A stretch of 13,971 bases of DNA from a virus (taxonomy: Duplodnaviria; Heunggongvirae; Uroviricota; Caudoviricetes), in the IMG/VR virus record IMGVR_UViG_2693429728_000012, positions 1-13,971 of that record. One strand, given 5' to 3'. Of the stretch, positions 1 through 13,971 are shown piece after piece. Numbering within the stretch: the first letter of the stretch is position 1; each line of letters begins with the position of its first letter. The notes below the pieces were generated by a model. It ran no database searches, was not told the DNA's origin, and worked only from the letters and a program-made list of their open reading frames with translations. A program made the position numbers and the translations under genes.

Positions 1-699
<699 letters not shown>

Positions 700-1263
700 T
701 TAAGCCTCACTGATTACGGTATGAACCTTAGCTATAGGTTTTATATCACTAATATCACATTCAAATGAAAAACCATCCCCAGATACCATTGCTCTTTTGA
801 CTGGTATCAAATTGATTTTTTTAATACTCAGTTTTCCTTCTATATCCACCAACCATTGACCATCAGAAATGGTAGTGTCTTCTCGGTCACAAATGTAAAC
901 ATGTTGGTTAATTTTTATCGCTAATGCAGATTTTATTTCATTGAGAAGAAAGACTGGATCAATCTTGTGCGTTCCAAGTGCAATAGCCTCTCCATTTTTT
1001 AGTTCGCGAGTTTCAACGTCTACCAAAGAGTTGACTGCTGTGGTTTTTAACTCACCTTTCCCTGATACCAGCCAATCAATTGAAGTACCAGTTTCTACAA
1101 CGCATTGAAGTACCCAATCTGCTGGAAAAATGTCACGCATGTAGCGGGTTGCCATTGTGCTCTTTGAAACCCCTAAGTGGTCGCAAAGGGCCTGACGAGT
1201 GGTGAAACCATACGCCTCAACCAAACGTTCAATCACTTTCTTTCCGCCGCTATTGAAATTCAA
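700..1263 (-). CDS. cI: Phage 186-type CI immunity repressor (HTH N-domain plus C-terminal oligomerisation domain)
   Basis: ORF 700..1350; HTH-like segment ERLVEAYGFTTRQALCDHLGVSKSTMATRY followed by WLVSGKGE and a C-terminal SDGQWLVDIEG block recalled as 186 CI-like. Start uncertain: TTG at 1263 has a GGAGGA Shine-Dalgarno; alternatives are GTG 1236 and GTG 1350 (no SD). Stop TAA at 700-702. Confidence 0.75.
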   Translation of the reverse strand: MNFNSGGKKVIERLVEAYGFTTRQALCDHLGVSKSTMATRYMRDIFPADWVLQCVVETGTSIDWLVSGKGELKTTAVNSLVDVETRELKNGEAIALGTHKIDPVFLLNEIKSALAIKINQHVYICDREDTTISDGQWLVDIEGKLSIKKINLIPVKRAMVSGDGFSFECDISDIKPIAKVHTVISEA

Positions 1264-1290
1264 GAGTCCTCCAAAACAATCTAAATTGCA

Positions 1291-1319
1291 TTGACAGATT
1301 CCAAAAGCGATCTTAAAGT
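1291..1319 (+). promoter_or_regulatory. Candidate rightward lytic promoter (pR-like) for apl-cII-early operon
   Basis: TTGACA (1291-1296), 17-bp spacer, TAAAGT (1314-1319), about 90 bp upstream of the apl start. Its position is compatible with the face-to-face pR/pL arrangement known for 186. Confidence 0.35.
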
Positions 1320-1409
1320 TGACCTCGAAGTCTTCTTTTGGAGCCTTCACAACTAATCACGATAAACAACGGCTCGCCACAAGCCGAATTAAAGAAGGAA
1401 TGTTGCACC

Positions 1410-1631
1410 ATGAACCCAAACATTTCAATCACTCTGAACACACCACACGTCACAATTGAGCGTTATAGCGAACTTACTGGTCTTTCTATCGACACAATCA
1501 ACGATATGCTGGCTGATGGCCGCATCCCTCGGCATCGTCTCCGGAAGGACAAAAAAAGAGAAAAGGTAATGATCAACCTTGCTGCTCTTACCGTTGATGC
1601 ACTTACTGATTGCAATGTTGTATTCAACTAG
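1410..1631 (+). CDS. apl: Apl/Cox-like small DNA-binding protein (excisionase / lytic-switch repressor)
   Basis: 73-aa ORF starting at ATG 1410 with AAGGAA Shine-Dalgarno 9 nt upstream; divergent from cI; basic, small, first gene of the rightward operon as in 186 (apl) and P2 (cox). Confidence 0.7.
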
Positions 1632-1663
1632 TTCCATTTTGGGATATATCAGGGGTGTCGACT

Positions 1664-2173
1664 ATGTTTGATTACCAAGTTTCCAAACATCCACATTTTG
1701 ATGAAGCCTGTCGTGCATTCGCGTTGCGCCACAACCTGGTGCAACTGGCAGAACGTGCAGGCATGAATGTGCAGATTCTGCGGAACAAGCTGAACCCAGC
1801 TCAACCTCATTTATTAACCGCACCAGACATCTGGCTGCTTACCGATCTGACTGAGGATTCAACGCTGGTAGATGGTTTTCTGGCACAGATTCATTGTCTG
1901 CCATGTGTACCAATTAATGAGGTGGCAAAAGAGAAACTGCCACATTACGTCATGAGTGCAACCGCAGAGATCGGGCGTGTTGCTGCAGGTGCGGTTTCTG
2001 GCGATGTAAAAACCAGTGCAGGCCGTCGTGATGCGATCAGCAGCATTAACTCTGTTACACGACTGATGGCGCTGGCTGCTGTTTCATTGCAGGCCCGTTT
2101 ACAGGCTAATCCTGCGATGGCGAGTGCGGTTGATACCGTGACTGGCCTCGGTGCTTCATTCGGTTTGCTGTGA
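1664..2173 (+). CDS. cII: CII-like lysogeny-establishment transcriptional activator (186 CII family)
   Basis: 169-aa ORF from ATG 1664 (AGGGGTG Shine-Dalgarno at 1651-1657), the same length as 186 CII; N-terminus [19 protein letters not shown] and position immediately after apl. Confidence 0.75.
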
Positions 2174-2180
2174 GGTGCTT

Positions 2181-2477
2181 ATGCTTACGAAAGAACCATC
2201 ATTTGCATCGCTGCTGGTAAAGCAAAGCCCGGCAATGCACTACGGTCACGGCTGGATCATGGGTGAGGATGGTAAACGCTGGCATCCGTGCCGTTCACAA
2301 GATGAATTGCTGTCTGAATTGACCACGAGAAAATGGAGAAAGTCCAAATGTATGCGGCAGAAAGTGAAGTGGTTTATCAGTTTCGTTACAGAGGGGAGAG
2401 TTATTCAGTACCTGAAGATGATTTGCTCTGTTGCTATCCGTCGTTGTCGGGCGATGGTAGCTACTTTTTCACGCTAA
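2181..2477 (+). CDS. Hypothetical early protein (position of 186 fil/dhr-type small genes); 3' end uncertain
   Basis: ATG 2181 with GAGGTG Shine-Dalgarno directly after the cII stop. N-terminal half (…HGWIMGEDGKRWHPCRSQDEL) looks protein-like; the C-terminal part overlaps the next ORF in another frame and looks less so. Confidence 0.4.
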   Translation: MLTKEPSFASLLVKQSPAMHYGHGWIMGEDGKRWHPCRSQDELLSELTTRKWRKSKCMRQKVKWFISFVTEGRVIQYLKMICSVAIRRCRAMVATFSR

Positions 2478-2572
2478 AGGATGGAACCTTTATACGTGGT
2501 GAAAAAGTACAAGAAGTGATGCGTATAAAGACATCACCTCTTGAACGTTATCGGCGAAGTATTTATCGGTAA
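2348..2572 (+). CDS. Hypothetical small early protein
   Basis: ORF 2333..2572; ATG 2348 has GGAG 9 nt upstream. Translation MYAAESEVVYQFRYRGESYSVPEDDLLCCYPSLSGDGSYFFTLKDGTFIRGEKVQEVMRIKTSPLERYRRSIYR is compositionally protein-like. Confidence 0.45.
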   Translation: MYAAESEVVYQFRYRGESYSVPEDDLLCCYPSLSGDGSYFFTLKDGTFIRGEKVQEVMRIKTSPLERYRRSIYR

Positions 2573-2811
2573 CGATCTATCAGTGTCTGTATCAGATGAG
2601 TGAATTCTTGTTGTTTAACCGAACCTAAAGGAAGTTTGTTTAATTCTTCGCGGAGGAGCTCAAAAAATGCAGATTGATTTGCTGAGTCAGTTCGAAATAA
2701 GGAGTGGATCAGACCTGAAACAAGAATTCGTTGAACAGCAACCTCATCGCGAAGACTGGAGATCTCGTTTTCAAGTTGCTCTATACGCTCTCTTTCAACC
2801 GGGTTCAACAT
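2563..2811 (-). CDS. Hypothetical 82-aa helical protein encoded antisense to the early operon
   Basis: ATG at 2811 with AAGGA Shine-Dalgarno 7 nt upstream; translation MLNPVERERIEQLENEISSLRDEVAVQRIL… is clean and heptad-like. The competing plus-strand ORF 2667..2903 also has an SD (GAGGAG), so only one is likely real. Confidence 0.35.
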   Translation of the reverse strand: MLNPVERERIEQLENEISSLRDEVAVQRILVSGLIHSLFRTDSANQSAFFELLREELNKLPLGSVKQQEFTHLIQTLIDRYR

Positions 2812-2892
2812 TGATGATTCCTTCTAGCTATCAATATGTTGGTAATGGATCATATCAAAAATTTTTTAGTAGATGTGTTGTGGGATGCATAA

Positions 2893-3234
2893 ATGGCTAT
2901 TGAAGGCACTGCGGCGACTGTTCCATTAAGCCCCGGTGAACGCCTGAATGGACTTAATCACATTGCGGAGTTAAGGGCGAAAGTTTTTGGCCTGAATATT
3001 GAGTCAGAGCTTGAGCGGTTTATTAAAGATATGCGTGATTCACGGGATATTAATAGCGAACAAAATAAACGGGCACTGGCTGCCATATTCTTTATGGCAA
3101 AAATTCCAGCTGAACGTCATAGCATCAGCATTAATGAGCTGACCACTGACGAAAAGCGGGAGTTGATTAAAGCAATGAATCATTTTCGTGCAGTGGTGAG
3201 CTTATTTCCCAGACGGCTAACCATGCCGAATTAA
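2893..3234 (+). CDS. Hypothetical early-operon protein
   Basis: 113-aa ORF with a protein-like sequence throughout (…AELRAKVFGLNIESELERFIKDMRDSRD…); same orientation as the operon. Confidence 0.55.
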   Translation: MAIEGTAATVPLSPGERLNGLNHIAELRAKVFGLNIESELERFIKDMRDSRDINSEQNKRALAAIFFMAKIPAERHSISINELTTDEKRELIKAMNHFRAVVSLFPRRLTMPN

Positions 3235-3301
3235 CCAACTAATGAAATTAATGGCGTAAACCCGCCGGGCATCCCTTTATCTAAATTCAGGAGAATTGAT
3301 T

Positions 3302-3535
3302 ATGCGTAATATTGAAACCCTCTCGACCAAAACCGGACCGGATGACGCAGGGCTTAATATTTTACTGACAGAGGCTCGTCTGGAAGAACGCCGGGCAAGG
3401 GCTGAAGCAATGGCAGCTCGCCTTGATAGCCTGGCGTGTCATATCACATCCCGCCAGCTAACCCACGTCGAAGCGGCAGAACTGCTTCGTGTGACTGCTG
3501 AAGCAATCCAGAACGAAGCGCAGGAGATCCACTAA
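3302..3535 (+). CDS. Hypothetical small early protein
   Basis: ATG 3302 with CAGGAGA Shine-Dalgarno 7 nt upstream (the ORF track starts at TTG 3296); stop TAA overlaps the next ATG (TAATG). Confidence 0.6.
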   Translation: MRNIETLSTKTGPDDAGLNILLTEARLEERRARAEAMAARLDSLACHITSRQLTHVEAAELLRVTAEAIQNEAQEIH

Positions 3536-3762
3536 TGGCTGATGCAATGGATCTCGTACAGCAGCGCGTTGAAGAAGAACGCCAACGCCATATCCGTGCT
3601 GCCCGTGCCAAAACGCCGGGCGTGTCCCGCGTGCTTTGCATTGAGTGTGAAGCGCCAATTCCGCCAGCACGCCGCCGTGCCATTCCGGGTGTGCAGCTTT
3701 GCATTACCTGTCAGGAAATCGCAGAGCTGAAAGGCAAACATTACAACGGAGGTGCTGTATGA
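3535..3762 (+). CDS. TraR/DksA-family C4 zinc-finger protein
   Basis: 75 aa with CIECEAPIPP…CITCQ (CxxC-N17-CxxC), a typical phage TraR-like zinc finger; AGGAGA Shine-Dalgarno; translationally coupled on both sides. Confidence 0.8.
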   Translation: MADAMDLVQQRVEEERQRHIRAARAKTPGVSRVLCIECEAPIPPARRRAIPGVQLCITCQEIAELKGKHYNGGAV

Positions 3763-4616
3763 GCACCATCCTGAAATGGGCGGGAAATAAAACTGCCATA
3801 ATGTCCGAACTGAAAAAACATCTTCCTGCTGGCCCGCGACTGGTTGAACCTTTCGCGGGTTCCTGTGCTGTGATGATGGAGACGGATTATCCCAGCTATC
3901 TGGTTGCGGATATTAATCCTGATTTAATCAACCTCTATAAAAAGGTTGCCGCTGATTGTGAATCGTTTATATCTCGCGCCAGAGTTTTATTTGAGATCGC
4001 AAACAGGGAGGTGGCTTATTACAACATAAGGCAGGAGTTTAATTACTCAACTGAAATTACTGATTTCATGAAAGCGGTATATTTCCTGTATCTCAATCGT
4101 CACGGTTACCGTGGTTTATGTCGCTATAACAAGAGCGGGCATTTCAACATTCCCTACGGTAATTATAAAAATCCGTATTTCCCTGAAAAAGAAATTCGCG
4201 CATTTGCAGAAAAGGCCCAGCGAGCAACGTTTATCTGCGCCAGCTTTGATGAAACGCTGGCGATGTTGAAGGCGGGGGATGTGGTGTATTGCGATCCGCC
4301 GTATGACGGTACGTTTTCCGGCTATCACACTGACGGCTTCACTGAAGATGACCAGTATCACCTGGCATCTGTTCTTGAACATCGGTCATCAGAAGGACAT
4401 CCGGTCATTGTTTCTAACAGTGACACATCCCTGATCCGTTCGCTGTATCGCAATTTTACTCACCACTACATCAAGGCAAAACGCAGCATCGGTGTGGCAG
4501 CTGGCGAGGGTAAATCAGCAACAGAAATCATTGCTGTTTCCGGGCCGCGCTGCTGGGTGGGATTTGATTATTCGCGTGGCGTGGATAGTTCTGCCGTGTA
4601 CGGAGTACGTGCATGA
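3759..4616 (+). CDS. dam: DNA adenine methyltransferase (Dam-like, N6-adenine, orphan)
   Basis: ATG 3759 (ATGA overlap with the upstream stop, GGAGG Shine-Dalgarno). AdoMet motif EPFAGSCAV near the N-terminus and catalytic DPPY (YCDPPYDG); N-terminus [11 protein letters not shown] is typical of Dam-family enzymes. Confidence 0.85.
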
Positions 4617-7027
4617 GTCATGCCGATATGAACAACTGCTGCAGCTTTAACGAAGCTGCCGCATCGTTCTCATGGAACAGCCCGAAAAAGGCCATTAACC
4701 CTTATCTGGACCCGGCGGAAGTTGCGCCGGTTTCTGCGCTTTCAAACCTGATCACTCTGTACGCTACTGATAACGAGCAGGAACAACTGCGCCGCGAGGC
4801 ACTGAGTGATCAGGTCTGGGAGCGTTATTTCTTTAATGAATCCCGTGATCCTGTCCAACGCGAAATGGAGCAGGATAAGCTCATTAGCCGGGCAAAGATG
4901 GCGCATGAGCAGCAGCGTTTTAATCCAGACATGGTCATTCTGACTGACGTCAACGCCCAGCCTTCCCATATCAGCAAGCCGCTGATGCAACGTATTGAAT
5001 ATTTCAGCAGCCTGGGCAGGCCAAAGGCTTATTCCCGCTATTTGCGTGAGACGATTAAGCCATGTCTGGAACGACTGGAGCATGTACGCGACAGCCAGCT
5101 ATCTGCATCTTTTCGTTTTATGGCAAGCCATGAAGGGCTGGACGGTCTGATGATCCTGCCTGAAATGAGTCAGGATCAGGTGAAACGCCTGTCTACCCTT
5201 GTCGCTGCGCATATGAGCATGTGTCTTGATGCCGCTTGTGGTGATTTGTACGCCTCCGATGATGTTAAGCCAGAAGAAATCCGCAAGACATGGGAAAAGG
5301 TGGCTGCAGAAACCCTGCGACTGGATGTCATACCGCCAGCGTTTGAGCAACTCCGCCGGAAAAGAAACCGCCGCAAACCTGTGCCTTATGAACTCATTCC
5401 GGGTTCGCTGGCGCGTATGCTGTGCGCCGACTGGTGGTATCGGAAATTATGGAAGATGCGTTGCGAATGGCGGGAAGAGCAGTTGCGTGCTGTCAGCCTG
5501 GTCAGCAAAAAAGCATCTCCCTATGTCAGCTATGAAGCCGTGATGCATAAACGTGAGCAGCGCCGTAAGTCGCTGGAGTTTTTCCGTTCTCATGAACTGG
5601 TGAACGAAGACGGCGACACGCTGAACATGGAGGATGTGGTAAACGCCAGCAGCAGCAACCCGGCGCATCGCCGCAACGAGATGATGGCCTGTGTTAAAGG
5701 CCTGGAGCTTATCGCGGAAATGCGTGGTGACTGCGCCGTTTTCTACACCATCACCTGTCCGTCACGTTTCCATTCCACGCTAAATAACGGCAGGCCAAAC
5801 CCGACCTGGACCAACGCGACAGTAAGACAAAGCAGCGATTATCTGGTCGGCATGTTTGCTGCATTTCGTAAGGCTATGCACAAAGCCGGGTTGCGCTGGT
5901 ATGGCGTGCGGGTGGCTGAGCCGCATCATGACGGCACAGTTCACTGGCACCTGTTGTGTTTCATGCGCAAAAAAGACCGCCGCGCCATTACTGCATTGTT
6001 GCGTAAGTTTGCCATCCGTGAAGACCGCGAGGAGCTGGGCAATAACACGGGGCCACGCTTTAAGTCTGAGCTGATAAACCCGCGCAAAGGAACGCCGACA
6101 AGCTACATTGCGAAATATATCAGTAAGAATATTGACGGGCGTGGTCTGGCTGGCGAGATCAGTAAGGAAACAGGTAAATCCCTGCGTGATAACGCTGAAT
6201 ACGTTAATGCCTGGGCGTCTCTGCATCGTGTTCAGCAATTCCGCTTCTTTGGCATTCCGGGGCGTCAGGCTTACCGTGAACTGCGATTGCTGGCTGGTCA
6301 GGCGGCAAGGCAACAGGGTGACAAAAAAGCAGGTGCGCCGGTACTGGATAACCCGCGCCTTGATGCCATCCTGGCTGCTGCTGATGCTGGTTGTTTTGCC
6401 TCCTACATCATGAAGCAGGGCGGCGTACTGGTTCCCCGCAAATATCACCTCATCAGAACCGCTTATGAAATCAACGAAGAGCCGACCGCCTATGGCGATC
6501 ACGGTATTCGTATTTATGGCATCTGGTCACCCATTGCAGAGGGCAAGATCTGCACTCATGCAGTGAAGTGGAAAATGGTTCGTAAGGCCGTTGACGTTCA
6601 GGAGGCGGCAGCCGACCAGGGCGCTTGCGCCCCTTGGACTCGTGGCAATAACTGTCCCCTTGCTGAAAATTTGTACCAACAAGGGAAAGACAAATCAGCT
6701 GATGGAGATACCAGAACGGATATCACCCGTATGGATGACAAGGAGTTGCACGATTACCTGCACAGTATGAGCAAAAAAGAGCGCCGGGAACTGGCAGCAA
6801 GATTACGCCTGGTTAAACCGAAACGACGTAAAGACTACAAACAGCGAATTACAGAGTATCAGCGTCAGCAGCTCGTCTATGAACTGAAGTCCAGAGGATT
6901 TGATGGCAGCGAGAAAGAAGTCGATTTGCTCCTTCGCGGTGGCAGTATTCCATCAGGAGCAGGCCTGCGTATCTTCTATCGGAACCAGCGTCTGAAGGAA
7001 GATGATAAGTGGCGGAACCTGTATTAA
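4613..7027 (+). CDS. A: Replication initiator endonuclease A (P2 gpA-type HUH rolling-circle nickase)
   Basis: 804-aa ORF, ATG overlapping the dam stop (ATGA). HUH motif HWHLLCF ([11 protein letters not shown]) and tyrosine motif YIAKYISK; size and position match P2/186 gene A. Confidence 0.9.
6627..6648 (+). other. Candidate rolling-circle origin (nick site) inside the A coding sequence
   Basis: gcgccccttggactcgtggcaa resembles my recollection of the P2 ori nick region (GCGCC..GGAGTC..TG.CAA), which lies in the 3' part of gene A; here it is about 84% into A. Recalled, not verified. Confidence 0.3.
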
Positions 7028-7121
7028 TTACGCGGGTTAACAATTCGTGCTCTTAATAATACCAGGCATATCAGGCTGATGAACGTAAAAAAACGTTTTA
7101 CATCAGTAAGATTATTATATA

Positions 7122-7137
7122 CTGTAAATATAAACAG
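7122..7137 (+). promoter_or_regulatory. LexA operator (SOS box) overlapping the promoter of the downstream small-ORF/dinI-like pair
   Basis: aCTGTAAATATAAACAGtg is a full CTGT-N8-ACAG match to the LexA consensus. It overlaps -10-like hexamers (TATACT 7118-7123, TATAAA 7129-7134), about 45 bp upstream of ATG 7181. Confidence 0.7.
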
Positions 7138-7180
7138 TGGTTATGTATACAGTATTGCTTGTGGTGTCATAGGAGGAAAG

Positions 7181-7369
7181 ATGCAGGACTATTTTTTGGA
7201 GTCTTTGAAGCTCCAGCGCATTGATTTTTTTCTTAAGCTTGTAGCGGCTAGTGAGTGTAGTGATGAAGAGAAGGGGCTGGCTCTGCAGTGGGTTTCTGAA
7301 CTGACAGATGAACTCATGGCAAAAATCAGAACCCACGAATACAACCGCTCAATGGATGTCATCAGCTGA
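7181..7369 (+). CDS. SOS-regulated small protein (possible N-terminal part or partner of a Tum-like antirepressor)
   Basis: 62-aa ORF from ATG 7181 with a strong AGGAGGAAAG Shine-Dalgarno. The ORF-track start at 7079 runs through the promoter and LexA box, so the internal start is preferred. Confidence 0.5.
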   Translation: MQDYFLESLKLQRIDFFLKLVAASECSDEEKGLALQWVSELTDELMAKIRTHEYNRSMDVIS

Positions 7370-7379
7370 GGTGACTTTT

Positions 7380-7613
7380 ATGCGCATTGAAATAATGATC
7401 GATAAAGAGCAGAAGATTAGCCAGTCTACCCTGGACGCCCTTGAATTCGAGCTTTACCGCAATCTGCGCCCCCTATATCCAAAAACGGTAATTCGTATCC
7501 GCAAAGGTAGCTCTAACGGTGTGGAACTTACCGGATTGCAACTGGACGAAGAAAGAAAACAAGTGATGAAAATTATGCAGAAAGTGTGGGAAGACGACAG
7601 CTGGCTGCATTAA
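7380..7613 (+). CDS. DinI-like protein (DinI/Tum C-domain family)
   Basis: ATG 7380 with GAGGTG Shine-Dalgarno. MRIEIMIDKEQKISQSTLDALEFELYRNLRPLYP…KVWEDDSWLH follows the E. coli DinI pattern (MRIEVTIAK…AGAIDALAGEL…ETWESADDW), recalled from memory. Confidence 0.75.
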   Translation: MRIEIMIDKEQKISQSTLDALEFELYRNLRPLYPKTVIRIRKGSSNGVELTGLQLDEERKQVMKIMQKVWEDDSWLH

Positions 7614-7621
7614 GAAACGTT

Positions 7622-7660
7622 GCCCCCAAGAGGATTCATTCGAATGGGGGCTAGTTTGGG
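7622..7660 (+). terminator. Possible terminator after the dinI-like gene
   Basis: GCCCCCA…(palindrome CATTCGAATG)…TGGGGGC followed by TAGTTTGGG; the stem is GC-rich but the loop is large and the T-tract weak. Confidence 0.3.
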
Positions 7661-7798
7661 CAATGAGTGAAATAAGGCGTAAGGTGGGTGGTCATTTTGA
7701 TAAATGATCGTCCGCTTTGTGCCAGAAGCGAACGTTTCTTCTGCTATCTTTCGTCAATTAACGAATGGCAGACTAATTTGCAACGGATAATCTGAATT

Positions 7799-7825
7799 TT
7801 GTAAGATTATGGGTATTCCTATAAT
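7799..7825 (+). promoter_or_regulatory. Candidate sigma70 promoter for the KAP NTPase gene
   Basis: TTGTAA (7799-7804), 15-bp spacer, TATAAT (7820-7825), in an AT-rich intergenic region upstream of ATG 7935; spacer is shorter than optimal. Confidence 0.25.
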
Positions 7826-7934
7826 ATTTACCAATAATAACCTTACAATGTACACTACCTATTGAATTTTCCATAGTTGGCCTTTGGCTCTACTTACCAT
7901 CTATGTTTATGTATTTTATCAAAATGGACTAAAA

Positions 7935-9827
7935 ATGCACAATACGTACATCAAAGACTATATAGAATATTACCTTAGCCTTAAAACTGAACCTCAATAC
8001 GCCATTATGCTTAAAGGTGCTTGGGGATCAGGTAAAACTTGGTTCATTGAACGAGTTCTTGAAGAATATAAGCAAAAGCATTCAGAGTTCAAATTTCTTA
8101 AAGTGAGTTTGTATGGCGTCAACTCTATTGAGCAGATTGAAGATGAGTTCTATCGTCAACTTCATCCTATTCTATCAAACAAAGCCCTTATCTTTGGTGC
8201 AAATGTACTAAAAAATACGCTTAAGGCTACTTTCAAGATCGATTTCAATGGCGATAATAAGTCTGACGTAGATGTCAATGCCAGTGTCCCCACCATTAAT
8301 CTTAGCGACTTTAGCAGAGAACCAGATGGTTTTGTGCTGGTCTTTGATGATATCGAGAGAGCTGGTATAGATTTACCAATCTTATTTGGATATATAAATC
8401 ACTTTGTAGAAGTAAACGGATACAAAGCGATCCTGGTTGCCAATGAAGAAGAAATAATCAACAGAGAAAAGCGAATAAATAATGATGATGAGAAATCTAG
8501 CAGTGAATACATAAGAACAAAAGAAAAGCTTGTAGGTAAAACATTTGAAGTAACGTCAGATTTACATAGTGCTTGTAATATTTTCTTGGGCGTAATTAGT
8601 AGTTTACACGTAGCTAATATATTTAAAGAAGATATGCAGACCATAGAACACCTCTATGTGTCGGCGAAATATAATAATCTAAGACATTTGAGGCAGTTCT
8701 TTCTTGATGTACAACGCATCATTTCCCTTTTGGGAGATAAATATGTCAGCAACGACGATTTTATGAAAGTATTTTTCCAGCAGTTATTAATTTTCTCGAT
8801 GGAGTACCGGGGAGGGAACCTTAACTACGAGGATTTCAATTCAATCGGCAATGTAAATTATAGTATGTTTTTAGATAAAGGGCGTGCCAAAACTAAGTAT
8901 GATATGATCGTCGAGAAATATTCATCACCTGTATTAACCGAGACGTTACTGGATGGTGCGTACTGGAGAGAGCTAATCTGTGATGGAAAGGTAACGCATG
9001 ATCTTCTCGCTCAGCTGGATATTACGCGATTTTTTAGAAGCACCGATGCCCAAGCATGGGAGTATTTGTGGAACTATCGAGAACTTAATGAAACTATTCT
9101 TAATGAACAGTACGCCATTGCCAAGGATAATCTATTTTCAGGTAAGATCACTTCCTTAGGTGAACTCCTGATGACCGCGAGTATTTTGCTGGCATTGGCG
9201 AAAGAAGGTTTAACCACAGATGCTGTTGATGACATTATAAATGAGACAAAACATCATATAGATATTTATTACAATGGATTAGGACCTGAAGATATACATC
9301 AGGAGTATGCGCAAAGACATTATAATGAGTTAATGGCATGGCGTGGCTTTGGTTTTCTTGACAGGGATAGCGATGAATTCAAACTCATTATTGAGCATAT
9401 TAAGATAGCGCAGAAGAAACGGTTTGATGAATCAATTCCGGAGTTTGCATTGAAGTTCAGCGATGAGTTGCAAAGAGGAAATTTATCGTTTGTATCTGAA
9501 TTGTGTCATTCTAATAATAGGCAGCTAAATCTTCATAACGTGCCTTTTTTACACTTGGTTTCTCCTGAAGTTTTCATTGAAAGCTATAGGAAACTTGACC
9601 CAATCATCATGAGGAAACTGGCATTTAGCTTGAGGGATCGTTATTCTGATAGGGATGCCAGAACCAGACTGACCGAAGAATACAACTGGTTGATTAGCCT
9701 AAAAGAGATAGCTGTAGATTTCACTCAAAACGCAGCCAATAACTCCTTTCAGGTTTTTCATGTAAAGTTTTTTATTGACTATGCACTAACTAATGCAATC
9801 AAATTATTTACTGAGGGAACTGATTAA
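7935..9827 (+). CDS. KAP-family P-loop NTPase (full length, about 630 aa), probable accessory/defense cargo
   Basis: Walker A GAWGSGKT near the N-terminus and Walker B VLVFDDIER about 120 aa later, with a long alpha-helical C-terminal region. First in-frame ATG is 7935 (the ORF track begins at TTG 7884). Strongly AT-rich compared with flanking A and Q/P genes. Confidence 0.85.
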   Translation: MHNTYIKDYIEYYLSLKTEPQYAIMLKGAWGSGKTWFIERVLEEYKQKHSEFKFLKVSLYGVNSIEQIEDEFYRQLHPILSNKALIFGANVLKNTLKATFKIDFNGDNKSDVDVNASVPTINLSDFSREPDGFVLVFDDIERAGIDLPILFGYINHFVEVNGYKAILVANEEEIINREKRINNDDEKSSSEYIRTKEKLVGKTFEVTSDLHSACNIFLGVISSLHVANIFKEDMQTIEHLYVSAKYNNLRHLRQFFLDVQRIISLLGDKYVSNDDFMKVFFQQLLIFSMEYRGGNLNYEDFNSIGNVNYSMFLDKGRAKTKYDMIVEKYSSPVLTETLLDGAYWRELICDGKVTHDLLAQLDITRFFRSTDAQAWEYLWNYRELNETILNEQYAIAKDNLFSGKITSLGELLMTASILLALAKEGLTTDAVDDIINETKHHIDIYYNGLGPEDIHQEYAQRHYNELMAWRGFGFLDRDSDEFKLIIEHIKIAQKKRFDESIPEFALKFSDELQRGNLSFVSELCHSNNRQLNLHNVPFLHLVSPEVFIESYRKLDPIIMRKLAFSLRDRYSDRDARTRLTEEYNWLISLKEIAVDFTQNAANNSFQVFHVKFFIDYALTNAIKLFTEGTD

Positions 9828-9890
9828 CATTTTGTTGATTAACATAGGTAATATTATTAGAAGTACTAGACATGGTCAGTAAAATTATTA

Positions 9891-9924
9891 AAGTCCGCTT
9901 CGCTCGAAGCGGACTTTGTGCTTT
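9891..9924 (+). terminator. Rho-independent terminator downstream of the KAP NTPase gene
   Basis: Perfect inverted repeat aagtccgcttcg-ct-cgaagcggactt followed by tgtgcttt. Confidence 0.6.
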
Positions 9925-10045
9925 ATAAAAACGAGAGTTTTGTTTTTCAAGCGGTCATTCGGTTACGGGATTTCACTTCCCCCGTAAGTGCATGACTATG
10001 CCGCATGAGATCGCATGATCGTTTGCGGATCGTTTTTGCCAAGGT

Positions 10046-10067
10046 CCGCCAGAACTGGCGGGCTTTT
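10046..10067 (+). terminator. Second rho-independent terminator (or 3' end of a small transcript)
   Basis: ccgcca-gaac-tggcgg, a 6-bp GC stem with tetraloop, followed by gctttt. Confidence 0.45.
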
Positions 10068-10112
10068 GCGTAGATCATGCAGGTGCATGAAAACCACTAC
10101 ATAAAGTGGGCA

Positions 10113-10131
10113 GGCGTGGCGGGGATACGAG
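10113..10131. other. Candidate cos site (cohesive-end sequence) of a P2/186-like phage
   Basis: GGCGTGGCGGGGA matches the start of the 19-nt cohesive end I recall for 186/P2 (GGCG[T/A]GGCGGGGAAAGCA…), and it sits between the A-side cargo and Q where cos is expected. Downstream bases diverge from the recalled sequence. Confidence 0.4.
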
Positions 10132-10289
10132 CGCGCGCAACGAGGTGAAATAGCAAAACTCGGCACAGCCTACGGCCCGCTAGCGGCTTCAAATTGAAAT
10201 GGTGAGGTGCAGCAGCAAAAAAACCGCCCCACAGGAAGTTGTTGAGGTTGTTTATTGAGGGAATTGGCTTAAGCGGTAAAACACAAACA

Positions 10290-10318
10290 TTGCAACTTGT
10301 GCATGAAATTGATACATT
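10290..10318 (+). promoter_or_regulatory. Candidate promoter for the 223-aa unknown gene
   Basis: TTGCAA (10290-10295), 17-bp spacer, TACATT (10313-10318), about 30 nt upstream of ATG 10351, which has a GGGGTG Shine-Dalgarno-like sequence. Confidence 0.25.
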
Positions 10319-10350
10319 GTGCGTAATGTGTCTATATTGCGGGGTGTTTT

Positions 10351-11022
10351 ATGGCTTTCAGAGCGGAAGAAGCAGCAGCATCGAATTTCGAAAATGCTTA
10401 CAGATATCTAGTTCCACAAGGTTCAAATCAGGAGATGCGTTCGAAAGTTAGGGCGAAGCTCAAAGAAATTGTTGAAGAATGTGGGCCAGTAGTGGATGGG
10501 TATCCAGCATGGCACCCTTTTTTGCTGGAAAGAGATAAAGCTATTTGGGCGCCTATGACTCCCAATAATACTCCTAGCTTTAAATACCTGGACCACACGG
10601 TCTATTTCAGGAACGGCATTCTTACCTGTCCTTATGGTCATGGGGTTGATGAATTTATAGCTGGTATAAAACGTCTAAAGCACACGGATGCCCATTTCTC
10701 TATTGAGAAGATTGATGACGTTGTGCTTTATAATGACAACGCCGTCCCGTTGTTAATAAAATGCCATTGGCTTATTTCGGAAGATATGGAAGAGGATGGC
10801 ACCATTCCAGCAAAAGCAGCAATTGGATTGATGCTTGAAAGCGAGGTTCCTAACTGGCGGCATGCAGTTTATTGTGAAAATTGGGAAGATATGCGCGGGC
10901 AGTTGATGGGATATCCGCACGGTGCCAGATCATCTCTATTTGTTAATCAGCAGACAGGACAGAAAATGAAAAACTTCTGGAATCAGCTGATTAAGACCGG
11001 AATTCTTGGGGAAGAGCGATAA
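10351..11022 (+). CDS. Hypothetical 223-aa protein of unknown function (cargo gene between cos and portal gene)
   Basis: Clean ORF with a protein-like sequence and no motif I recognise; has its own putative promoter and a downstream hairpin; convergent with Q; moderately AT-rich. Confidence 0.7.
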   Translation: MAFRAEEAAASNFENAYRYLVPQGSNQEMRSKVRAKLKEIVEECGPVVDGYPAWHPFLLERDKAIWAPMTPNNTPSFKYLDHTVYFRNGILTCPYGHGVDEFIAGIKRLKHTDAHFSIEKIDDVVLYNDNAVPLLIKCHWLISEDMEEDGTIPAKAAIGLMLESEVPNWRHAVYCENWEDMRGQLMGYPHGARSSLFVNQQTGQKMKNFWNQLIKTGILGEER

Positions 11023-11035
11023 TTTCTTGAGGCTT

Positions 11036-11066
11036 AGCTGCGCCTTTAACAAGCAGAGGCGCTGCT
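11036..11066. terminator. Bidirectional terminator candidate between the convergent 223-aa gene and Q
   Basis: gcgcct-ttaacaagcag-aggcgc, with an inner agcag/ctgct stem, followed by tttttaaattt; lies in the 52-bp gap between two convergent stop codons. Confidence 0.4.
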
Positions 11067-11074
11067 TTTTAAAT

Positions 11075-12124
11075 TTAGCTATCGTTGTTTGTGTCTATTC
11101 CCAGCGTGTAGGGCTCGAAGCGGATCACCTCTTTACCTAGCCAGTAATTCAGCTCCTGCAGCCGCTTTTGCAGCGGCATCAGTTCATTGCGGACGAAGAC
11201 ACGGCTCGCTTTTTCCACATCCCCAAAACCCCCAACATTATTCGGCATAATCCCCATCATTTGCGGTGGCACACGATGCGCCGCCATCATGTCATCCCGG
11301 CTCACGTTCTTGATGTTCAGAAACTCATCCTTCGCCGCGACTTCTGACAACGGGATGATCTGAAGCCCGTCCTTTTTGCCGTTAGGCGAGTACATAAACA
11401 GATTGCGGAAGTTACCTGGTCCTTTGGCGCTTTTCATCGCATTGCGGAGGTTGTTCACATCCTCCTGGTTTTGCGCGGCATCGGTCATGTACATGATGAA
11501 GCCTGCATGACTGCCGTTAATGTAATACTTTCGGCGGAACAGCGTGGCGGACTCGTTGAGCAGGGCTGACGGAATGGCAGAAAGATAACCTGGCAGGCCG
11601 TAGATCTCCTGGTTGATGTCCGGTTCCATCAGATGAAAGATGCTGCCTTTCGTAAACTGATACGGCTGCGTGGTCATGCCGTATTGCACAAACCAGTAGG
11701 TATCCAGGTCTAACCCGCGTCGGGTGTATTTTGCCAGGGCCGGTTCAAGGACGATAACTTCACCGAAGCGGTTCGTGCGTTTCTCCAGGTAGGCGTTACC
11801 AAATACCAGATAGTCCTGCACAAAACGTGAAAAAGCCTGCTGGCTGAGCAGCGGGTGAGGGATGTAGGTGCTGGTCAGAATGTTGCACTTTACTGCAATC
11901 GGGGAACTGTGATGCACGGCGGCGCGAAAGGTGCGCGCCAGCCCGTCGAAACTCACTGGCGGCTCATACCAACGATCTGTCTGTACGCATTCCACATAGT
12001 CCAGCAGTTCGCGGCGGTCCAGAACAGGAACGGGATCACCGAAGCTGAATGCTTCGGCTGAAGTCTGGCTTTTATGCTGGATCTGGTTCGTCGACGCAGC
12101 GCGGTTCTTCTTACTCTTTCCCAT
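11075..12124 (-). CDS. Q: Portal (capsid portal/head completion) protein, P2 gpQ-like
   Basis: About 349 aa, N-terminus MGKSKKNR…; size, orientation and adjacency to the terminase match P2 Q. ATG 12124..12122 overlaps the P stop (TGATG); the ORF-track start at 12127 is TTG. Confidence 0.85.
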   Translation of the reverse strand: MGKSKKNRAASTNQIQHKSQTSAEAFSFGDPVPVLDRRELLDYVECVQTDRWYEPPVSFDGLARTFRAAVHHSSPIAVKCNILTSTYIPHPLLSQQAFSRFVQDYLVFGNAYLEKRTNRFGEVIVLEPALAKYTRRGLDLDTYWFVQYGMTTQPYQFTKGSIFHLMEPDINQEIYGLPGYLSAIPSALLNESATLFRRKYYINGSHAGFIMYMTDAAQNQEDVNNLRNAMKSAKGPGNFRNLFMYSPNGKKDGLQIIPLSEVAAKDEFLNIKNVSRDDMMAAHRVPPQMMGIMPNNVGGFGDVEKASRVFVRNELMPLQKRLQELNYWLGKEVIRFEPYTLGIDTNNDS

Positions 12125-13890
12125 CAAAAAATCTCCACAATATTGCTGGTATTGGCGGACTCGCCCTGCAGCGGTTCGTTAAACAGTGCGTGCATGGTTG
12201 CCCAGGCCAGATCGGCATGGCTGGCTTCTTCGCTGCGGCTGGCTTCATAGGTCGGGCGGTTGCCGCTGGCGGTGGTGGCGCGACGGATTGCCATAAATGA
12301 CTGCGCTATGTCGGTGTGTCCGGCGTCAAACTCCAGACGGCGGTGACTGATAATGTCGTAGGCCTTGAGTACCAGGGCGTTTTTAACGTTGGGGTTGTAG
12401 ACAAACTCCCGGACGGCTGGAAAAAACGCTTTCACGTTCTCGTAAACCCCGTGACCAACGCCGGTTGAGTCGATACCGATATAAGTCACGTTGTACTGTT
12501 CGGTAAGTTTTTTGATGGCGTCAGCCTGGGCGCGGAAGTCCATCCCGCGCCACTGGTGACGCTCAAGAATGCGGAACTTACCACCCGGCACGGCTGGCGG
12601 TGCCACCACCACGCATCCAGCGCTGTCGCCGTTTTGCGTACCTTTTGCCGGGTCATAACCGATCCACACTTCGCGCCAGCCAAACGGGCGCAGTGCCAGT
12701 GCATGAAAGTCGGTCCAGACTTCCCAACTGTCCACCATGCACGCCTGCAGCTCGCTGAGCGGAAACACGGACGCGAGATCGTCCACAAACTCGCACATCA
12801 GCAGGTTCTGGTATTCGTCCGGGCTGTACTCCATGCGTAGCTGGTCGAGGTCGAACAGGTTACAGCCGCCGCGCACCGCATCTTCCACGGTGACTATCTG
12901 GCGGTACTGCCCGTCTGCGCACAGCAGGCCGGGGGCTAGATTGCTGTGGGACAGGTCGATGTCCACCTTATCGGCTTTGTTGCGCCCACGGTTGAACAGC
13001 GCACCGGACCAGAACGGATAAGCACTGTGTGTCAGACTGGATGGCGTGGAAAAATAGGTTTGTCGCCATTTTTTGTGAATAGCCATACCGGAAGCCACTT
13101 TGCGCAGCTCCTGGAATTTCGGTATCCAGAAATATTCATCCAGATACAGGTTGCCGTGGTAACTCTGGGCCGTGCGGGCATTGGTGCCGAGGAAGTAAAG
13201 CGTGGCCCCGTTAGGAAGCACCATCGGATCGCCTTTCAGCTCCACCTCCACTTCTTTGGCAAAGTCGATGATGTACTGTTTAAAGACGTGGGCCTGAGCC
13301 TTGCTGGCAGAAAGGAAAATCTGGTTACGCCCGGTCAGCAGGGCGTCAATCAGGGCTTCACGGGCAAAGTAAAAGGTCGCGCCGATCTGGCGTGACTTCA
13401 GCAGGTTGCGGATGCGGTTGGTTTTTCCGGCTTCCCACCAGTGGCGCTGGTAGTTGAACATAGAGGAATTGAAGATTTCTTCCAGTTTCTCAATCTGTTC
13501 ATCGGTGAAAACATTCTTTTCCGGCTGACGACGTGGGCCTTTGTTGCGGTTGGCAACGTTAGGGTTTAAGTCGGCTTCGTTGCCGCCATTGTTAAACTTG
13601 CCGATCCGCGCGTGGCGCTCAGACTGGCGTGCCAGCAGGTCAATTTCTTTGAAATCTTTCCCTTCTTTGTGCTCCTTCATAATGAGCTGGCAGTAGCGTG
13701 CGGCGGTGGTGAGCTGCATCTGATCCAGCGGCCCATAGTCACCCCACTTGTCGCGTTTTTTCCAGCTGTGAACGGTTGCAACTTTCTCGCCCAGCATTTC
13801 AGCAATGCGGGCGACGCGGTATCCCTGAAAGTACAGCAGCATGGCCTGCCGACGGGGATCGAGGTCTGCGGGTGTCAGTGTGGTGTTCAT
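12124..13890 (-). CDS. P: Terminase large subunit (ATPase/nuclease), P2 gpP-like
   Basis: 588-aa ORF from ATG 13890; size and position upstream of Q are characteristic of P2-like terminase P, and the sequence is protein-like throughout. Confidence 0.85.
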   Translation of the reverse strand: MNTTLTPADLDPRRQAMLLYFQGYRVARIAEMLGEKVATVHSWKKRDKWGDYGPLDQMQLTTAARYCQLIMKEHKEGKDFKEIDLLARQSERHARIGKFNNGGNEADLNPNVANRNKGPRRQPEKNVFTDEQIEKLEEIFNSSMFNYQRHWWEAGKTNRIRNLLKSRQIGATFYFAREALIDALLTGRNQIFLSASKAQAHVFKQYIIDFAKEVEVELKGDPMVLPNGATLYFLGTNARTAQSYHGNLYLDEYFWIPKFQELRKVASGMAIHKKWRQTYFSTPSSLTHSAYPFWSGALFNRGRNKADKVDIDLSHSNLAPGLLCADGQYRQIVTVEDAVRGGCNLFDLDQLRMEYSPDEYQNLLMCEFVDDLASVFPLSELQACMVDSWEVWTDFHALALRPFGWREVWIGYDPAKGTQNGDSAGCVVVAPPAVPGGKFRILERHQWRGMDFRAQADAIKKLTEQYNVTYIGIDSTGVGHGVYENVKAFFPAVREFVYNPNVKNALVLKAYDIISHRRLEFDAGHTDIAQSFMAIRRATTASGNRPTYEASRSEEASHADLAWATMHALFNEPLQGESANTSNIVEIF

Positions 13891-13936
13891 GGCACAAACC
13901 TACAGCCTTGAATGAAGGCTTTCCCCGCCTGCGGTT

Positions 13937-13954
13937 TGTGTGGTTGTCGGTACA
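13937..13954 (-). promoter_or_regulatory. Candidate P2-type late promoter activator site (Ogr/B-type TGT-N12-ACA dyad) upstream of P
   Basis: Minus-strand reading TGTACCGACAACCACACA is TGT-N12-ACA, centred about 55 bp upstream of the P start codon; P2 late promoters carry such a dyad near -55. Confidence 0.35.
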
Positions 13955-13971
13955 AATACCGCGCATTGTTT

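Follow-up and report, generated by a model that had tools for sequence, protein, structure and literature searches.

A soluble KAP-family NTPase gene beside cos in a 186/P2-like prophage is a candidate single-gene anti-phage system

What does a single long, AT-rich gene do between the replication genes and the cos site of a prophage related to 186 and P2? We addressed this question in a stretch of 13,971 nucleotides of caudoviral DNA (IMG/VR record IMGVR_UViG_2693429728_000012, positions 1 to 13,971; hereafter the window), which comprises the early/replication end and the packaging end of such a prophage and shares 99.9% DNA identity with prophages of E. coli NGF1 and NC101. The gene (7935–9827, plus strand) encodes a KAP-family P-loop NTPase of 630 amino acids, WP_000552033.1. 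An earlier note on the window, made from the sequence alone, had put it forward as a candidate single-gene defence or exclusion system. Our results support this proposal: a match to the candidate defence family PDC-S49, homology to the defence protein Reve, the hotspot locus, mobility as a module, purifying selection and precedents among KAP proteins together make it rather probable that the prophage carries here a stand-alone gene for defence against, or exclusion of, phages, which encodes a soluble KAP NTPase and is a PDC-S49 member and distant sister of Reve; we infer its activity from homology and context.

The family assignment is clear. The Pfam model KAP_NTPase (PF07693) aligned with residues 4–262 (model positions 3–289 of 293; E-value 3.6e-21; 76.1 bits, cut-off 20). 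The Walker A motif GAWGSGKT (G28-x-W30-G-S-G-K34-T, residues 28–35) is encoded at 8016–8039 and the Walker B and ER motif VLVFDDIER (F137-D138-D139-x-E141-R142, residues 134–142) at 8334–8360, both on the plus strand. W30, G31, G33 and K34 in the former, and D138, D139, E141 and R142 in the latter, are invariant in an alignment of 98 full-length homologs that are 26–33% identical to the query, confirming the earlier reading of one long KAP NTPase with intact Walker A and B motifs.

Hidden Markov model (HMM) searches, which the earlier note had proposed as a check, returned PDC-S49 of the PADLOC database besides KAP_NTPase. The PDC-S49 match runs from end to end (residues 2–624 of 630 against positions 5–615 of 624 of model PDLC05031, E 1.5e-160), and two other models of the same system, PDLC05029 and PDLC05030, matched with E-values of 2e-152 and 2.2e-88. 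PDC-S49 is a large family of uniform architecture, with 3,876 clusters (50% identity, E ≤ 1e-30), of which nearly all of the 150 best are about 600–650 amino acids long. Like the present protein, its members are encoded by a single gene of about 620 codons and combine a KAP NTPase with a helical C-terminus. PDC systems are computationally defined "phage defence candidates", drawn from genes inside BREX, DISARM or type I restriction–modification (RM) loci, and they entered PADLOC as candidates without testing (Payne et al., bioRxiv 10.1101/2024.01.29.577857). The family was thus nominated by its embedding in such loci, whereas the present copy is prophage cargo. Other resources were less informative: PHROGs gave a single match, to phrog_4740, a family of unknown function; NCBIfam gave nothing meaningful, and a sequence-profile search of the PDB gave no match. 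At the DNA level the segment had no match among 50,697 phage records, and tblastn against the phage records found two weak N-terminal matches only.

The closest link to a validated system is provided by Reve, a single-gene protein with similarity to the KAP P-loop that emerged from tests of unknown hotspot genes of P4 satellites (NAR 2026, PMC13586616). Expressed from plasmid pFD425, Reve reduces the plaquing of all seven tested Drexlerviridae to between 2.5e-6 and 2.5e-2, and it does not protect consistently against lambda, other tested siphoviruses, T5-like phages or P1 (PMC13586616). We took as its sequence the translated synthesised fragment that precedes Syst.20 in Dataset E1 (UnknownSys7, plasmid pFD425), which gives 586 amino acids. 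When the two family profiles were aligned with hhalign, residues 27–612 of the query paired with positions 55–600 of the template over 532 columns (probability 99.3%, E 1.4e-20), so the alignment spans the NTPase and the C-terminus at nearly whole length. The family HMM also gave collinear N-terminal and C-terminal matches to Reve in hmmsearch, and the sole PADLOC match of Reve is PDC-S49 (E 2.5e-11). Both proteins are soluble products of single AT-rich genes, comparable in length (586 and 630 amino acids) and architecture; both have ORC-type top fold matches, and both sit in cos-adjacent hotspots of the P2/P4 pair. By these profile comparisons, the KAP protein is a distant relative, or sister, of Reve. 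A difference is that Reve has been validated against Drexlerviridae, while the present protein is known here from its sequence.

The position of the gene fits the same reading. It lies beside cos between gpA, the replication endonuclease gene (4613–7027; PF05840, E 5e-126), and the portal gene gpQ (11075–12127, minus strand), in a segment whose content differs from one related prophage to the next, as expected of hotspot cargo. The region between gpA and gpQ near cos is a hotspot of anti-phage systems, where P2 carries old and tin (Rousset 2022, PMC9122126); the placement in the P2 old/tin hotspot given by the earlier note is therefore correct. The hotspot has two slots, one on either side of cos, and the KAP gene occupies the A-side slot. 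In an empty-site relative (L004), homology of the flanks stops at 7623 and restarts at 9987, so we place the boundaries of the cargo at 7624 and 9986 (2.36 kb), close to the 7614–9930 reported earlier. The left flank is formed by the last conserved phage gene, a DinI-like gene, and the right flank by a conserved cos block (9987–10141) with homology to L004 and to many prophages. Within this block, GGCGTGGCGGGGATACGAG at 10113–10131 is presumably the cos core, as identified by its agreement with the cohesive-end sequence of 186 and P2. The GC content of the cargo is 36.8%, as compared to 52.6% for gpA and 55.1% for portal and terminase genes together, which bears out the stated AT-richness relative to the phage core. 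Flanking repeats or transposon ends were looked for around the cargo, and none were found.

A survey of presence and absence showed how variable this locus is. Some part of a query covering 7000–11100 was matched in 1260 of 5426 complete E. coli genomes; in the rows sampled from these, mostly the dinI-side and cos flanks were matched, and the slot between them was empty or held unrelated genes in most. The KAP gene itself was found in 46 of the 5426 genomes, always as a single chromosomal copy, with alleles falling into three groups of about 99.6–99.9%, 94% and 90% identity. As a side observation, an IS30 insertion in E. coli MS20659 (NZ_CP082073.1, 938241–943564) splits the 4.1-kb region in two and leaves the KAP gene intact.

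The gene travels as a module with its own leader and terminator. The program-listed open reading frame (ORF) extends from a TTG at 7884 to 9827; however, the annotation by PGAP in E. coli NGF1 starts the coding sequence of WP_000552033.1 ("P-loop NTPase fold protein") at 7935, and the ATG at 7935 and the N-terminus that follows are kept in four diverged copies, so we take 7935 as the true start. Copies with 76–78% protein identity occupy other cargo positions of lambdoid prophages in Serratia (beside int at icd) and Edwardsiella, where about 180–240 bp of leader ahead of the gene and the sequence behind it, through the terminator hairpin, are carried along. In the alignment of all four diverged copies of the module, conservation starts at an invariant block, AATTAACGAATGG (7756–7768, plus strand), and ends just past the terminator. 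The non-coding leader from 7756 to 7934 has a mean column identity of 80%, a cross-genus conservation about equal to that of the coding sequence, and may hold regulatory elements; a two-codon mini-ORF, ATGGACTAA (7923–7931), lies shortly before the start codon. Further upstream, a weak hairpin at 7709–7734 (plus strand; dG −10.4 kcal/mol, z −1.5), not significant alone, lies at the upstream edge of the mobile module and is also present in the Serratia copy.

The module is closed by a hairpin terminator at 9889–9918 (plus strand), with a perfect stem of 13 bp, a dG of −20 kcal/mol and a z of −5.8; none of 200 shuffles folded equally well, and the T-tract is modest. The strong terminator of the earlier note is thus well founded. 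Its putative promoter fared less evenly. Read from the sequence and the alignment of diverged copies, a putative promoter region lies at 7799–7849 (plus strand), with TTGTAA-15 nt-TATAAT visible by eye at 7799–7825 and a −10-like TACAAT at 7844–7849 that appears as TATAAT or TAAAAT in diverged copies, but a consensus scan for sigma-70 sites on the plus strand of 7614–7935 found no site.

No fixed partner accompanies the gene. Its neighbours differ in every context examined, across four prophage variants in E. coli and at 10 distant loci, and the Q-side slot of KAP-carrying prophages holds a 223-amino-acid ORF (as in the window), a 97-amino-acid protein, a trio containing an HNH gene, or a RES-family protein. 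The 223-amino-acid ORF (ORF223) was considered as a partner and rejected, since the KAP gene co-occurs with four different Q-side neighbours and the ORF223 slot varies independently.

The five compared copies of the KAP gene are all intact at 630 codons, with protein divergence of up to 24%. The ratio of nonsynonymous to synonymous substitution (dN/dS) is 0.21–0.36 overall; across genera it is 0.18–0.28 in the NTPase and 0.33–0.41 in the C-terminus. The gene is therefore under purifying selection and not decaying, and its C-terminus evolves faster. Positive selection in the C-terminus is unsupported, with dN/dS below 1 everywhere and merely higher than in the NTPase.

PDC-S49-type proteins recur in comparable slots. 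In Providencia rettgeri, two adjacent lambdoid prophage copies (L011, 9219–11830 and 18681–20271) share an antiterminator Q, RecA_dep_nuc and DUF1367 arrangement. The slot beside DUF1367, in the nin region, is taken by a 28%-identical KAP homolog in one prophage copy and by a gene with an AbiTii domain in its neighbour, a like-for-like swap at one position. A third, diverged PDC-S49-like KAP NTPase (E 7.3e-28) is found in the Q-side slot of P2-like prophages of other E. coli, as in YD786 (NZ_CP013112.1, L015), where it lies at 5017–6861 of that locus; the start annotated for it falls within the block homologous to cos, and the true one probably lies further downstream. In the A-side slot, the prophage of YD786 encodes an 883-amino-acid protein with HsdR_N, P-loop and S1 domains (2267–4918). 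The present gene, Reve and this third gene thus show repeated recruitment of soluble KAP-like NTPases to the hotspots that adjoin cos in P2 and P4.

Several observations weigh against a defence role. The homology to Reve is remote, with 13% identity in the profile alignment; BLASTP aligned just 49 residues of the two proteins, in the Walker A stretch, at 35% identity, and the Lys/Asp-rich insert of the KAP protein is missing from the Reve family. Searches for homologs of Reve returned 48 proteins, which have no identifier in common with those of the KAP homolog search. None of 10 sampled homolog loci showed embedding in BREX or RM systems, and several of these homologs are lone chromosomal genes. 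In the literature we found no experiment on WP_000552033 or on any member of PDC-S49, which is a computational candidate only; neither name occurs in the main text of any paper found, and the accessible part of the supplements of Payne et al. holds no description of PDC-S49. The supplementary table of Rousset 2022, in which KAP_NTPase appears 69 times, contains the exact arrangement WP_001154434, WP_000552033, WP_000885505 and WP_001217575; it is listed there as a hotspot occupant and is absent from the systems reported as validated (PMC9122126).

To see how such a protein could act, we predicted its structure. AlphaFold2 with the family alignment gave a pLDDT (a per-residue confidence score) of 84 for the whole protein, and residues 265–630 modelled alone reached 92.8, with a pTM (a confidence score for the overall fold) of 0.82. 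The predicted fold is an AAA+/ORC-like NTPase with a lid, followed by an all-alpha, solenoid-like C-terminal domain (residues 267–630; 8733–9824, plus strand), the faster-evolving part of the protein. The prediction showed no enzyme fold in this domain, which looks like a generic alpha-solenoid, and no winged-helix or other DNA-binding domain was detectable in it; the C-terminal effector domain for which the earlier note had suggested a structural search did not appear. Between helix alpha2 and the Walker B strand, residues 76–125 (8160–8309, plus strand) form an insert that is modelled at a pLDDT below 50, yet is conserved as strongly as the P-loop core. It contains H77, P78, a lysine ladder (K83/K93/K97/K101) and an acidic DxDxDG-like loop (D103/D107/D111). 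The insert is polar and charged and occupies the place of the membrane helices in canonical KAP/YobI proteins. A transmembrane insertion was rejected: the top Kyte-Doolittle window of 19 residues scores 1.49, below the threshold of 1.6, and falls in a buried, high-confidence helix.

From these features we propose the following course of events. The protein would be expressed in the lysogen from the gene's own leader, and its fast-evolving alpha-solenoid would recognise a product of the infecting phage. Recognition would flip the N-terminal AAA+/STAND-like NTPase into a nucleoside triphosphate-bound assembly, with contributions from K34 of Walker A, D138/D139 of Walker B, a putative sensor-1 N170 and a putative sensor-2 R250. 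As there is no catalytic effector domain, the assembly itself would be what halts the infection.

Where this last step would take place is less certain. The version that we favour, though with low confidence, places it at the inner membrane, contacted through the Lys/Asp-rich insert, by analogy with the exclusion of T7 by PifA through leakage and abortive infection; PifA is the only mechanistically studied KAP protein without transmembrane helices. Two findings speak against this version. The EF_KAP protein, the only KAP NTPase tested for abortive infection, is not abortive (PMC13552941), and the best structural neighbours of the present protein are DNA-binding AAA+ proteins (ORC/Cdc6, TnsC and MuB), which would fit a DNA-directed action rather than one at the membrane. 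Such an action, like that of ORC, MuB or TnsC, and a non-abortive sequestration as reported for EF_KAP (PMC13552941) are alternatives to the membrane step. We also entertain, as a rather unlikely reading, that the PDC-S49 clade, in which a conserved, flexible Lys ladder and DxDxDG-like acidic loop take the place of the membrane hairpin of KAP NTPases and no enzymatic effector is present, embodies an effector-less immune mechanism not described so far. In one form, a ring or filament driven by ATP would directly coat or clamp the DNA of an incoming phage, or would sequester one of its proteins; in another, a metal-dependent switch would dock at the membrane.

The structural neighbours raise a rival explanation, in which the gene is still a defence gene and acts on nucleic acid: after sensing infection, the NTPase would polymerise on or clamp phage DNA in an ATP-dependent manner, the Lys-ladder insert serving as the DNA contact as in ORC/Cdc6, MuB and TnsC, so that replication or packaging is blocked and the cell is spared. 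However, the similarity is limited to the generic AAA+ core and lid, which are common to NOD-like receptors (NLRs), Apaf-1 and RdrA as well, and the C-terminus offers no detectable domain for binding DNA. We consider this explanation improbable.

The defence reading must also be weighed against an accessory gene with another role, such as a regulator of complex assembly, a factor for lysogenic conversion or stress, or an anti-satellite or anti-defence factor. Homologs occur in small integrase or recombinase islets, beside an insertion sequence, or alone in the chromosome, and those found singly amid the housekeeping genes of Burkholderia, Methylophilus and Pseudomonas would suit such a role. 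So would a 44%-identical homolog in Pantoea sp. EA-12 (L019, 336–7803), which shares its locus with RadC, an ArdA-like antirestriction gene, a group II intron reverse transcriptase, SRAP and PsiA; judged by its gene content, this locus looks like the leading region of a conjugative element (an integrative and conjugative element or a plasmid), an unusual setting for a defence candidate. Against this, the slots are otherwise filled by defence genes (old and tin in P2; AbiTii, RES and HNH genes in relatives), the only validated relative, Reve, is a defence protein, and the gene is patchy in E. coli and horizontally mobile, which leaves a non-defence role in our view doubtful. In the locus of another, distant homolog (L018, 10001–13130), an islet bounded by an integrase, a 423-amino-acid gene without a Pfam match opens 8 nt ahead of the KAP homolog's stop codon and may be a lineage-specific partner. 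Finally, that the gene is decaying or neutral AT-rich cargo which no longer functions is very improbable, since its foreign base composition and the lack of a strong consensus promoter stand against an intact frame of equal length in all five copies, the low dN/dS, catalytic motifs that are all invariant, and a non-coding leader and terminator conserved across genera.

Apart from the KAP module, the window carries further phage genes and a second piece of cargo. The CI repressor is encoded at 700–1350 (minus strand), accompanied by other early genes for CII/CP76, Fil, DUF5347, DUF2732, a TraR/DksA zinc-finger protein and a Dam methylase, and the large terminase gene lies at 12124–13890 (minus strand). 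The DinI-like gene (7308–7613, plus strand; Pfam DinI, E 6.5e-22), for which PGAP annotates a shorter coding sequence at 7380–7613, matches PHROG 189 only in its C-terminal part (positions 64–148 of 151). In phage 186, the corresponding region encodes the antirepressor Tum, which is related to DinI, and the gene in the window may likewise encode a Tum-like, SOS-linked antirepressor instead of a plain DinI. ORF223 (10351–11022, plus strand; WP_000885505.1) fills the Q-side slot, with cos on one side and the portal gene on the other. Pfam, PADLOC, PHROG and NCBIfam gave no match for it, nor did tblastn in the phage records, and it has 203 homologs of about 222 amino acids in Gammaproteobacteria (39–88% identity among the 120 listed). 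With a promoter-like TTGATA-18 nt-TATATT at 10309–10338 and a terminator-like hairpin at 11040–11062, it is a candidate cargo or defence gene in its own right, unconnected with the KAP gene.

These results indicate that the KAP gene is a credible and unsurprising candidate defence gene, a sound ordinary annotation from sequence comparison. The defence reading is supported and not new: the family is catalogued in PADLOC, the very protein is in the published hotspot table of Rousset 2022, and 2026 brought the validation of the remote homolog Reve and of other KAP NTPases. Should the gene prove active, the P2/P4 hotspots would gain one more working single-gene system, and a very large candidate family, spread across Proteobacteria with about 3,900 clusters at 50% identity and E ≤ 1e-30, would have its first functional evidence. 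The family would then be tied to Reve, and cos-adjacent hotspots would be seen to have acquired soluble KAP-like NTPases on at least three separate occasions. A mode of phage arrest without a recognisable catalytic effector would bear on the action of KAP NTPases generally, and if the effector-less reading is true, the working of KAP NTPases, a question open since 2004, could be studied in E. coli with this gene as a tractable model.

Compared with known systems, the KAP protein stands apart from several. The tripartite architecture of STAND/Avs-type, NLR-like proteins (an effector domain, a STAND NTPase and a sensor of TPR, WD40 or LRR repeats) was not found in it. No PADLOC model of Tmn (YobI family), QatA of QatABCD or RdrA of RADAR matched at E ≤ 0.01; the transmembrane hairpin of Tmn is missing from the present protein, and the neighbours are the DinI-like gene, cos and the 223-amino-acid protein without a Pfam match, with no QatBCD or RdrB partner among them. 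Membership in the PifA family was rejected as well, because the PADLOC PifA model matches only residues 18–57 around Walker A (E 0.005, 13.4 bits). PifA is triggered by gp1.2 and gp10 of T7, and these triggers are not transferable to the present protein. The likeness to PifA is one of type: the PifA of the F plasmid is also a single-gene KAP NTPase without transmembrane helices on a mobile element, and it excludes T7 via membrane leakage (PMC13001434). EF_KAP and three metagenomic KAP NTPases, which come from Firmicutes or gut metagenomes, protect against phages as single genes and require Walker B and the C-terminal region (PLoS Biol 2026, PMC13552941). They resemble the present protein, by description, in fusing a KAP NTPase to a C-terminal region without a recognisable domain, and EF_KAP differs in having transmembrane helices, of which the present protein has none. 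To old and tin of P2 there is no sequence or domain relation, and no OLD-type ABC ATPase or TOPRIM domain was found in the KAP protein; what they share is the cargo locus itself and, on the defence reading, the same logic of an exclusion gene carried by a prophage beside cos.

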